A DNA stretch of 64,000 nucleotides from a virus (taxonomy: Duplodnaviria; Heunggongvirae; Uroviricota; Caudoviricetes): IMG/VR virus record IMGVR_UViG_3300046474_000237, positions 7,469-71,468 of that record; one strand, given 5' to 3'. Positions 34,890 to 37,197 of the stretch are shown here, one piece after another. A model generated the notes under the pieces. It was not told the DNA's origin. It made no database searches and saw nothing but the letters and a program-made list of their open reading frames with translations. A program made the translations under genes and the position numbers. The stretch's first letter is position 1. Each line of letters opens with the position of its first letter.

Positions 34890-35336
34890 ATGAACGAACA
34901 AATTAAGCAGAAGTGGATTGAAGCGTTGACGAGCGGCGAATATGCACAGACAAAAGGCTGTCTAAATGATGGCAATGGCATGTGTTGCCTAGGAGTTCTG
35001 TCTGATCTCTATCGTAAAGAACAGGGGGGAGAGTGGAAACTAAGTGACGCTGCTATTAGAGCAGGCGAATCGAGATACGCTCTTCAACACGAGGGGATGA
35101 CATTCGGGGATGACGAAGAGATCGGAGTTCTTCCAGCGAAGGTTAGAGATTGGGCTGAATTGCAGGAATGCATTCCTAATCTTCCTTTCGTACCGAAAGA
35201 CTTGTTTGAACCGCAATGTGAAACAAACACTCTAGAAGAACTCGAACATTATAACTATTTAGAAAGCTTAGCCGGTGCAAATGACGCCGGTATTACTTTC
35301 CCTCAAATCGCTGATCTTATCAAGGCATTTGTATAA
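34890..35336 (+). CDS. tandem paralogue family protein 1 (CCLGVL motif)
   Basis: MNEQIKQKWIEALTSGEYAQTKGCLNDGNGMCCLGVLSDLY...FPQIADLIKAFV. The six-frame ORF starts at 34785. Confidence 0.6.
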   Translation: MNEQIKQKWIEALTSGEYAQTKGCLNDGNGMCCLGVLSDLYRKEQGGEWKLSDAAIRAGESRYALQHEGMTFGDDEEIGVLPAKVRDWAELQECIPNLPFVPKDLFEPQCETNTLEELEHYNYLESLAGANDAGITFPQIADLIKAFV

Positions 35337-35725
35337 TGAACGAACAAATCAAACAAAAGTGGGTTGAAGCTCTTACGAGTGGAGAATATAAACAAGGTCG
35401 TAACTGTCTCAATGATGGTTTCGGAGGGTTCTGTTGCCTAGGGGTGTTGTCGGATCTTTATGCAAAAGAACAGAATTTTAAATGGGGAGACGATGGCCGT
35501 GGGAACTTCTGTCTAGACGGAGAAATTTATACGACTCCAAAGACAGTCCAAGCATGGTCTGGACTTAAAGTAGACGTCCCGTATCTTCCGTTTGCTTCAC
35601 GTGATAACGTTCCATATGGAGATTCTACACATATCATGGAGGGAGACTCAACTAGCATTGCTGCTTTGAATGATGAAGGCATTTCTTTCCCCCAAATCGC
35701 AGATCTTATCAAGACATTTCTATAA
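35336..35725 (+). CDS. tandem paralogue family protein 2
   Basis: MNEQIKQKWVEALTSGEYKQ...FCCLGVLSDLY...FPQIADLIKTFL. Confidence 0.6.
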   Translation: MNEQIKQKWVEALTSGEYKQGRNCLNDGFGGFCCLGVLSDLYAKEQNFKWGDDGRGNFCLDGEIYTTPKTVQAWSGLKVDVPYLPFASRDNVPYGDSTHIMEGDSTSIAALNDEGISFPQIADLIKTFL

Positions 35726-36108
35726 TGGCGATGAACTCGGAAGTAAAAGAAAAGTGGGTAGCTGCTCTTAAGAGTGGCGAGTACAAACAAACTCAATACG
35801 CTCTTCACGACAATGAAGGATTTTGTTGTCTAGGCGTTCTGTGTGACCTGTACTCGAAAGAGTTTTCGGAAGTAACATGGGAGTTTGACGACAAACTTAA
35901 AATGTACGTTTTTCAGCGTGAACGTACTGAGTTGCCAAGCTGTGTCTCGGTCTGGGCGGGAATCAATACTCTACACGGCAACGCAGCCGTCACTTTCCGA
36001 GACGAAGACTGTCAGAACGGAGAGCGTGCAACTAACCTGATGGACTTGAATGACGAGTGGTTAATGTCTTTCGACAAAATCGCTGACATAATCCAGGAAC
36101 AACTGTGA
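35725..36108 (+). CDS. tandem paralogue family protein 3
   Basis: EKWVAALKSGEYKQ...FCCLGVLCDLY...FDKIADIIQEQL. Confidence 0.6.
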   Translation: MAMNSEVKEKWVAALKSGEYKQTQYALHDNEGFCCLGVLCDLYSKEFSEVTWEFDDKLKMYVFQRERTELPSCVSVWAGINTLHGNAAVTFRDEDCQNGERATNLMDLNDEWLMSFDKIADIIQEQL

Positions 36109-36455
36109 ATGAGCGTGTAAAGAAACTGTGGGTTGAAGCACTTCGTAGCGGGGAGTATAAACAGACCCGTGGTAAACTTAAACACCAAACTGAAGACGGT
36201 GGATTAGAACATTGCTGTCTCGGGGTCTTGTGCGAAATTCACGACAAGGAAATGGGCTGCGAGCAATCGTTCAAGTCTATCGATGGATTTCCGCCTCCGC
36301 ACATTTTACAGTGGTCTGGATTCAACGCAGTAAATGCGAGATTTAAAGTTGAAAATACTGCGATAGGAACTGTGAGGGATAGCATTTCCTTTCTCAACGA
36401 CGCTCGTCTGTACACCTTCGCTCAAATAGCTGCTCTAATCGAGGCTCAAGCATGA
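36105..36455 (+). CDS. tandem paralogue family protein 4
   Basis: GTG start. KLWVEALRSGEYKQ...HCCLGVLCEIH...FAQIAALIEAQ. Confidence 0.55.
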   Translation: MNERVKKLWVEALRSGEYKQTRGKLKHQTEDGGLEHCCLGVLCEIHDKEMGCEQSFKSIDGFPPPHILQWSGFNAVNARFKVENTAIGTVRDSISFLNDARLYTFAQIAALIEAQA

Positions 36456-36808
36456 ATCAGGAAATTAAGGAAAAGTGGGTGAAGGCCCTTCGTAGCGGCG
36501 AGTACCCCCAAGGAACGCTTGCACTGAATGACTGTGGTAAATTTTGCTGTCTGGGTGTTCTTTGTGATATGTATTCCAAAGAGACCGGAGAGCCGTGGGT
36601 AGAGTCCGAGATAACGCAAGGTAAGAAACTCATTCACTCTGAGGAAGGGCTTCTACCTTATGAAGTAAGGTATTGGTCAGGTGCCAATACTTCGGATGGA
36701 CAACTCCCTTTTCTCGGTCGTCAAAAAGAAGAGCTTTGGCTGGCAAATCTTAACGATGGCGGAATGCCCTTCGGCCAAATCGCTGATCTTATCGAACACT
36801 GTCTGTAA
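36452..36808 (+). CDS. tandem paralogue family protein 5
   Basis: EKWVKALRSGEYPQ...FCCLGVLCDMY...FGQIADLIEHCL. Confidence 0.6.
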   Translation: MNQEIKEKWVKALRSGEYPQGTLALNDCGKFCCLGVLCDMYSKETGEPWVESEITQGKKLIHSEEGLLPYEVRYWSGANTSDGQLPFLGRQKEELWLANLNDGGMPFGQIADLIEHCL

Positions 36809-36825
36809 AACCTCAAGGAACTACA

Positions 36826-37197
36826 ATGAAAAAACGTATCAAAACCAAATGGCTCAAGGCTCTGCGTATCGGTGAGTATAACCAGACTACGGGTCAACTG
36901 AGGGATAGCACGGGGTTCTGTTGCCTCGGCGTTCTGTGTAATATCCACGCTCAAGAGAATCCTGAGATTGCTGCTAAAGAAACAGATCCTCACGAATATC
37001 TGCAGGCCTCAGGACAACTTCCTCCCGCAGTCGTTGCCTGGGCTGGCTTGGAGAAGGCCTCTGTAGAAGAAACTGCAGATGAAGAAACAGACATCAAGGT
37101 AACGTATCGCAACAAAGAAACGACTCTCGCAAGCCTTAACGACGGTGAAGGTCTGAGCTTCAAGAAGATCGCAAACGTGATCGAGCGTTGTCTGTAA
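36826..37197 (+). CDS. tandem paralogue family protein 6
   Basis: TKWLKALRIGEYNQ...FCCLGVLCNIH...FKKIANVIERCL. Confidence 0.6.
   Translation: MKKRIKTKWLKALRIGEYNQTTGQLRDSTGFCCLGVLCNIHAQENPEIAAKETDPHEYLQASGQLPPAVVAWAGLEKASVEETADEETDIKVTYRNKETTLASLNDGEGLSFKKIANVIERCL

Follow-up and report, generated by a model that had tools for sequence, protein, structure and literature searches.

Small phage proteins catalogued in Pfam as PF26948 (DUF8296) and in PHROG as group 18067, in both cases without an assigned function, are the closest described relatives of the genes dealt with here. Six such genes stand in tandem in a 64,000-nucleotide (nt) stretch of DNA from a virus of the Caudoviricetes (IMGVR_UViG_3300046474_000237, positions 7,469-71,468), the whole of which is called the window below. 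Compared with the catalogued family, their products are of the same size, carry the same CCLGV and N-D motifs and are matched end to end by the hidden Markov model, the E-values for PHROG 18067 ranging from 1.6e-16 to 1.4e-26 and the matches covering profile positions 1-127/128 of 129. The Pfam name rests on a precomputed table, in which PF26948 is assigned (E <= 1e-5) to all six genes in L001 and L002, two contigs with the same array as the window, and also to all 120 top homologues; the local copy of Pfam, which lacks the PF26948 model, gave no family match by hmmscan. A first-pass annotation, made from the letters alone, did not recognise the family; this holds for its function, which neither catalogue gives, but the family as such had already been catalogued under both names. 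The array is a multi-copy instance of a catalogued DUF, not a new kind of system.

All six genes lie on the plus strand. Copy 1 (34890-35336, 148 amino acids (aa), E = 1.6e-16 against phrog_18067) starts from the ATG yielding MNEQIKQKW and bears the longest central insertions; it overlaps by 1 nt with copy 2 (35336-35725, 129 aa, E = 1.4e-26), and copy 2 overlaps to the same extent with copy 3 (35725-36108, 127 aa, E = 1.4e-21). Copy 4 (36105-36455, 116 aa, E = 1.4e-18), with a GTG start, is joined to copy 3 by a 4-nt GTGA overlap, and copy 5 (36452-36808, 118 aa, E = 3.2e-22) to copy 4 by a 4-nt ATGA overlap, while copy 6 (36826-37197, 123 aa, E = 4.7e-23), the one of the MKKRIK type, is set off from copy 5 by a 17-nt spacer in which AAGGA occurs. 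Every gene start in the array has a Shine-Dalgarno-like motif 5' of it (AGGA, AAGG or GAGG). The tandem paralogous open reading frames (ORFs) with small overlaps, described in the first-pass annotation, are thus present in the ORF list, with lengths of 116-148 aa and one gap, that before copy 6.

The MAFFT alignment of the six copies contains 26 invariant columns, including K6, W9, A12, L13, G16, E17, Y18 and Q20—residue numbers being those of copy 2 throughout—followed by CCLGVL, N-D, F, I-A and I. The conserved N- and C-terminal blocks and the divergent centres proposed earlier correspond to these columns and to the gapped middle of the alignment. Pairwise identities within the array span 32-53% (37-53% against copy 1), and composition-adjusted BLASTP gave E = 7e-18 and 2e-19 for two distant pairs of copies; together with the full-length PHROG 18067 matches, these values show that the similarity goes beyond the low-complexity composition that the first-pass annotation had considered as its possible source. 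The six ORFs are true divergent tandem paralogues. The same array recurs on independent metagenome contigs, about 20 in number and drawn from several samples, and is therefore no assembly artefact.

Concerning the family as a whole, a signature of the form W-x2-AL-x-SG-x-Y-x-Q ... CCLGV ... ND-x-G-x2-F-x2-IA in a protein of ~110-150 aa, derived in this analysis and not taken from Pfam, shows no variation among the six copies and reaches 93-100% conservation over 376 non-identical, diverse family sequences, the set from which all the conservation figures below were computed. When 1.84 billion cluster representatives were searched with a profile, 44,402 proteins, each standing for a cluster at 50% identity, matched at E <= 0.001 and 29,427 at E <= 1e-10. 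Of the best 150 matches listed, nearly every one has a single domain and a length of 110-150 aa. There are a few multi-domain chains, such as P0121 (377 aa, three domains) and P0122 (264 aa, two domains), each of these fusions being confined to one or two contigs; no fusion of DUF8296 to another Pfam domain was seen. The hosts of the phages and prophages concerned cover cyanobacteria, proteobacteria, actinobacteria, Bacteroidota, candidate-phyla bacteria and others. The family is present in only ~14 of the 50,697 cultured-phage records, always annotated as hypothetical; the carriers are the Synechococcus phages B3, B23 and S-H1, the Alteromonas phages AD45-P1 to P4, Ralstonia phage RSP15, the Stenotrophomonas phages CM1 and RAS14, Bradyrhizobium phage ppBjS10J-1 and Tunturiibacter phage Tunturi_3. 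A megablast search of the locus against cultured phages gave no match, an NCBIfam scan of the six proteins gave nothing, and a PADLOC scan of the same six, the models of which describe defence and not anti-defence proteins, gave no match either. When 68 members of the family were compared with Pfam at E < 1, no weak match recurred above noise.

The AlphaFold2 model of copy 2, built from a 68-sequence alignment, is of high confidence (mean predicted local distance difference test score (pLDDT) 91.5, predicted template modelling score (pTM) 0.85), its sole weak stretch being ~88-104, within a variable loop. The predicted fold is a small alpha/beta one, with a helix at residues 3-14, a beta-meander, a helix at 34-45 starting at the Cys-Cys pair, then short strands with a short helix, and finally the C-terminal helices 108-113 and 118-128. 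Foldseek found no match to this model in the PDB at E <= 0.001, the BFVD search returned uncharacterised relatives only, and profile searches of PDB sequences yielded nothing relevant; the fold, as modelled, matches no solved structure. By inspection, the six proteins have neither a signal peptide nor a hydrophobic segment, the grand average of hydropathy (GRAVY) lies between -0.34 and -0.47 and the isoelectric point (pI) between 4.4 and 6.4.

The positions conserved at 90-100% are K6, W9, A12, L13, S15, G16, Y18, Q20, L25, C33, C34, L35, G36, V37, L38, D40, W50, P68, V71, W74, N112, D113, F118, A122 and I125, with C33, N112 and D113 reaching 100%, C34 99% and both Y18 and Q20 98%. The invariant polar positions of the core comprise K6, S15-G16, Y18, Q20, C33-C34 where helix 2 begins, D40, E45 and N112-D113, E45 being conserved at 84%; C39, likewise at 84%, is replaced by Ser in copies 1 and 2. 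The segments ~46-66 and ~78-106 exhibit high entropy and many insertions and deletions. There is no conserved His column in the 376 sequences, the most His-rich position, 42, being occupied by Y in 64% and by H in ~24% of them. Two protein types were considered and found not to fit: a papain-like or other Cys-His hydrolase, with C33/C34 invariant but neither a conserved His nor a fold match, and an iron-sulphur or zinc cluster protein, as only C33 and C34 are invariant, C39 reaches its 84% and the other cysteines are not positionally conserved. Both are thus disfavoured because of the missing His column and of the number of invariant cysteines, which is just two.

The copies are old. Synonymous sites are saturated between them (proportion of synonymous differences, pS, 0.63-0.90), which dates the duplications far back. 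In the related contigs the order of genes is AAA ATPase, Band_7, RF-1-domain protein, array, 323-aa protein and ThyX, the array counting eight copies in L041, L043 and L067, and seven in L042; L051 (five copies) and L053 (four copies) have the RF-1 gene, the leader and the micro-ORF (described below) in common with the clade of the window. L133 has six copies, the last one again of the MKKRIK type. The number of copies in the clade thus ranges from 4 to 8, with the operon head and the last copy common to the arrays. If the copies of the window are numbered W and those of L041 A, the orthologues are one-to-one and collinear at 58-70% identity, namely W1-A1, W2-A2, W3-A3, W4-A5, W5-A6 and W6-A8, the first five pairs sharing 64, 67, 62, 64 and 59%, respectively, and A4 and A7 having no counterpart in the window. 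In a neighbour-joining tree of 55 array members, which is a rough guide only, the last copy (W6, A8, C5, D4) is common to four lineages, and the copies group by lineage in three cases, Synechococcus phage B23, L123 and the L055/L047/L073 group, a pattern that points to independent expansions of DUF8296 in other phage lineages.

For every pair with measurable synonymous divergence (dS), the ratio of nonsynonymous to synonymous divergence (dN/dS) was 0.05-0.40 in the array genes and 0.02-0.34 in the flanking genes. Between the window and L041, dN amounts to 0.23-0.37 in the array against 0.02-0.25 in the flanks, and dS is >1.7 or saturated against 0.6-1.0. The array is a local divergence hot-spot, each member of which is nonetheless constrained. 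In the unsaturated L041/L042 comparisons, the ratio is 0.08-0.09 for the core and 0.31-0.34 for the loops, the latter being under relaxed constraint and not under demonstrable positive selection. The term "rapidly diversifying", used for these paralogues in the first-pass annotation, therefore needs to be narrowed: the array does diverge faster than its flanks and varies between four and eight copies, but the saturated dS, the ordered orthologues and the ratios given above, loops included, give no support to rapid diversification of its members.

The operon is headed by three elements. The most distal is a promoter-like motif, TTTTGGTATAAGAGAG (34730-34745, plus strand), located 5' of the operon and resembling an extended -10 element, TGGTATAAG. 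With at most one mismatch, GGTATAAGAGAG occurs at four plus-strand sites of the window (19162, 34734, 48626 and 60357) against 0.23 expected; the corresponding sites of (T)TTGGTATAAGAGAG, 19162-19173, 34734-34745, 48626-48637 and 60357-60368, are all on the coding strand and 5' of genes, those following being tRNA-Leu, the DUF8296 operon, a 506-aa ORF and the dCMP deaminase gene. Upstream sequence is also common to three of the four sites. Judging from its sequence, the motif probably represents a putative phage promoter class of the extended -10 kind, serving non-structural genes. Between it and the micro-ORF there is a conserved leader (34746-34797, plus strand). Motif and leader together, ~65 nt (34730-34797), are near-invariant in four lineages—the window, L041, L051 and L053—in which the flanking proteins have strongly diverged; conservation of the leader is listed for L133, too. 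The hairpin with a U-tract that it could form does not exceed shuffled sequence in stability (z = -0.62), and the leader has no Rfam match.

The third element is the micro-ORF (34798-34893, plus strand), encoding a single-pass membrane peptide of 31 aa (MKAVLKVSVWTLGVTIALVCIAIITYTGSRP), the stop codon of which overlaps the start of copy 1 in an ATGA. Its presence and hydrophobic character, pointed out in the first-pass annotation, were seen again, and it is retained in related contigs, L041 and L042 among them. The 16 nucleotide differences from L041 consist of 11 synonymous ones and 5 conservative replacements (V/A or T/A), and they therefore follow the pattern of a translated gene. In the more distant relatives L051, L053 and L133, a membrane peptide of 33-36 aa occupies the same position.

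Based on the above results, host interaction appears to be the most plausible functional class for the DUF8296 copies. The reading that we favour, at a probability of roughly 0.4, is that they are host-interaction proteins, produced from a single operon as a panel in which a conserved Cys-Cys core carries loops of variable specificity. The locus is a single transcription unit: after the promoter-like motif and the leader come the gene for the 31-aa membrane peptide and the six genes of the array, which are translationally coupled and descend from ancient duplications of DUF8296, a small alpha/beta domain of cytoplasmic character. All copies keep the same core and differ in the two central loops, ~46-66 and ~78-106; each of them would act as a stand-alone accessory protein while the non-structural genes are in use during infection. 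Together, the conserved polar and Cys residues may form one site, and the Cys-Cys part of it could provide one common chemistry or ligand contact, whereas the loops would set the specificity of each copy by choosing the host factor, or the variant of a signal or substrate, to be engaged; the targets are presumably host components. The array would thus be a panel of specificities, in which every member is held by purifying selection and change comes by gain or loss of whole copies.

An anti-defence role is plausible within this frame. It is suggested by the genomic setting and the repeated expansions, and it draws no support from homology or selection statistics: the proteins match no PDB protein in sequence or fold, including the anti-defence proteins of solved structure, such as DNA mimics, signal sponges and signal-degrading enzymes. 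Several points tell against a panel of host-interaction proteins. The spatial clustering of the conserved residues is an assumption, and their strict conservation across phages of very different hosts would fit a housekeeping enzyme equally well. Neither gene-wide nor region-wise dN/dS revealed positive selection, values being <1 everywhere, the loops included, so that an arms-race signature is missing at the available resolution. In about three quarters of the 129 DUF8296 loci covered by the copy-number survey the gene is single, and a panel is thus not essential to the function of the family. Finally, a full-text literature search on the family by accession, DUF name, PHROG number and motif found no paper.

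The genomic surroundings bear on the alternatives and are described here. The entire window represents the plus-strand, non-structural arm of a large phage genome. The nearest relatives of its DNA polymerase, sharing 45-47% identity with it, come from Salmonella phage Arash and the Vibrio phages D69, D148 and D181, which have genomes of 180-187 kb; the source would be an environmental phage of roughly 180 kb. Ribonucleotide reductase and ThyX are encoded as well. The family-A DNA polymerase is apparently split into two overlapping ORFs (3102-4355 and 4348-6057, plus strand) that correspond to consecutive parts of one PHROG profile. Farther on, Hen1, with its N-terminal and methyltransferase domains (9390-10706, plus strand), adjoins Pnkp, with kinase, phosphatase and ligase domains (10709-13144, plus strand), the two forming an RNA repair pair of bacterial type, here in a phage. 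The window has 21 transfer RNA (tRNA) genes between 19229 and 40111 (plus strand), one of which (27076-27151), with the anticodon CTA and called tRNA-Pyl by ARAGORN, would read the amber stop; translated with the standard code, the ORFs of the region appear intact. A Ro60 homologue with TROVE and vWA domains is found at 58067-59725 (plus strand). An NMN adenylyltransferase (NMNAT)/Nudix fusion (43564-44700, plus strand) stands beside a nicotinamide phosphoribosyltransferase (NAMPT) gene (44690-46150, plus strand), the two making up a two-gene NAD salvage module. Modules of this type have been reported to counter NAD-depleting defences.

Just 5' of the array, an RF-1-domain protein (34099-34716, plus strand) carries VGSS in place of the catalytic GGQ and is fused to a C-terminal phrog_8298 domain of unassigned function; it may be a release-factor-like protein unable to hydrolyse peptidyl-tRNA. 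The GGQ is retained in its homologues L051:6525-7055 and L053:7140-7817, and this neighbour is confined to the phage clade of the window. The 323-aa protein that always follows the array in the clade (37359-38330, plus strand) has no Pfam or PHROG match and evolves fast, with 67% identity to L041 and a dN/dS of 0.27-0.34.

With regard to the family in general, 88 dereplicated loci, of which 31 are from bacterial genomes (prophage-like) and 57 viral, were surveyed by scanning 116 bacterial-genome neighbours with Pfam and 150 viral-contig neighbours with PHROGs. No Pfam or PHROG family recurs beside DUF8296 in them beyond the synteny of lineages. Of the 88 loci, 22 have tRNA genes within ~8 kb, at distances mostly spread over 1.5-8 kb and with no background control; in L112 and L020 they directly flank the DUF8296 gene. 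Such proximity is only a lead, not evidence. Homologues of Ro60 are found directly 3' of DUF8296 genes in L055 (8860-10335) and L073 (8875-10353).

The alternatives are an enzyme or ligand sponge, a hetero-oligomeric complex and a regulator, in the order of falling likelihood. The idea that DUF8296 is an enzyme or a sponge for a small molecule or nucleotide, with Y18, Q20, C33-C34, D40 and N112-D113 as a catalytic or ligand pocket, overlaps in part with that of host-interaction proteins and puts the weight on chemistry instead of on binding to host proteins. The ligand would be a molecule common to all bacteria, for example a nucleotide, a moiety of RNA or tRNA, or an immune signal, and the paralogues would differ in range. 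We regard it as a possible but unlikely explanation. It would account for polar and Cys residues being near-absolutely conserved over a family of 44,402 clusters from phages and prophages of many phyla, and a Cys at the N-terminus of a helix is a classic position for a nucleophile, although neither a conserved His nor any other evident general base goes with it and there is no fold or sequence link to an enzyme or sponge of known structure. The frequent location of the family in regions of RNA and translation accessory genes, as seen from the tRNA genes in a quarter of the loci surveyed, L112 and L020 included, from the RF-1 genes and from Ro60 in L055 and L073, would also fit, as would the Pnkp/Hen1 pair, the Ro60 homologue and the 21 tRNA genes of the window, but the distances to the tRNA genes are mostly scattered and uncontrolled, as noted above. 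A more far-reaching reading, which we consider rather unlikely, would make DUF8296 a structurally novel superfamily of counter-defence or host-takeover effectors. The target of their invariant Cys-Cys/Asn-Asp site, to be bound or modified there, would be a universal molecule of nucleotide or RNA type, perhaps an immune signal or tRNA, with the two loops tuning the specificity, so that arrays of 4-8 copies beside RNA-repair and tRNA genes would act as a multi-specificity translation shield.

That the paralogues might be subunits of one hetero-oligomeric assembly, for which the array supplies stoichiometric parts, seems improbable. Equimolar synthesis would indeed be favoured by coupling through overlaps of 1-4 nt, the order of the copies is conserved between phages, and the natural chains of two or three DUF8296 domains hint at physical association; these fusions are, however, rare, each known from one or two contigs, and a fixed complex is hard to square with 4-8 copies among close relatives and one copy in most phages. 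Least probable is the reading of the proteins as small regulators that bind DNA or RNA polymerase through a C-terminal helix-loop-helix and redirect host or phage expression. Copy 6 has a weak Pfam match to the winged-helix family HTH_35 (E = 0.012), yet its 16 bits lie below the curated cut-off of 25 and the match does not recur, only 2 of the 68 members reaching E < 1. Likewise, the C-terminal block LNDxGxSFxxIAxxIE, read as sequence, resembles the first half of a helix-turn-helix, but the protein ends right after the C-terminal helix, which leaves no recognition helix, and with a pI of 4.4-6.4 the proteins range from acidic to neutral.

DUF8296 is among the larger uncharacterised phage families, with its 44,402 clusters, and it has stayed unstudied because it is almost absent from cultured phages. 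It combines a confident predicted fold without a solved relative with an unusual invariant vicinal-cysteine motif. For work with defence libraries, ligands and structures, the six copies of the window, like the 4-8 in relatives, form a ready series of natural variants whose orthologues are known. Should a function come to light, it would serve to annotate tens of thousands of genes of environmental phages at once.

Set against known systems, the locus differs from most sampled DUF8296 loci, which have one copy, in that the clade of the window carries 4-8, behind a membrane micro-ORF in the same operon. The array resembles the loci of T4 internal proteins and the "genomic accordions" of poxviruses in its co-oriented paralogues with a conserved frame, a divergent remainder and a variable number of copies; unlike in those, the DUF8296 copies are old, with saturated dS, each is under purifying selection, and the N-terminal block lies within the folded domain (pLDDT 98) and is not a detachable targeting peptide. 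For the proteins themselves, taken as the host-interaction proteins favoured above, the closest likeness is to phage immune-signal sponges and other small anti-defence proteins (Tad1, Tad2, Acb2, Ocr and ArdA), with which they share the small size, the cytoplasmic, stand-alone and accessory character, the place in the non-structural part of the genome, the wide spread over phages of many hosts and conserved ligand-type residues in a compact domain.

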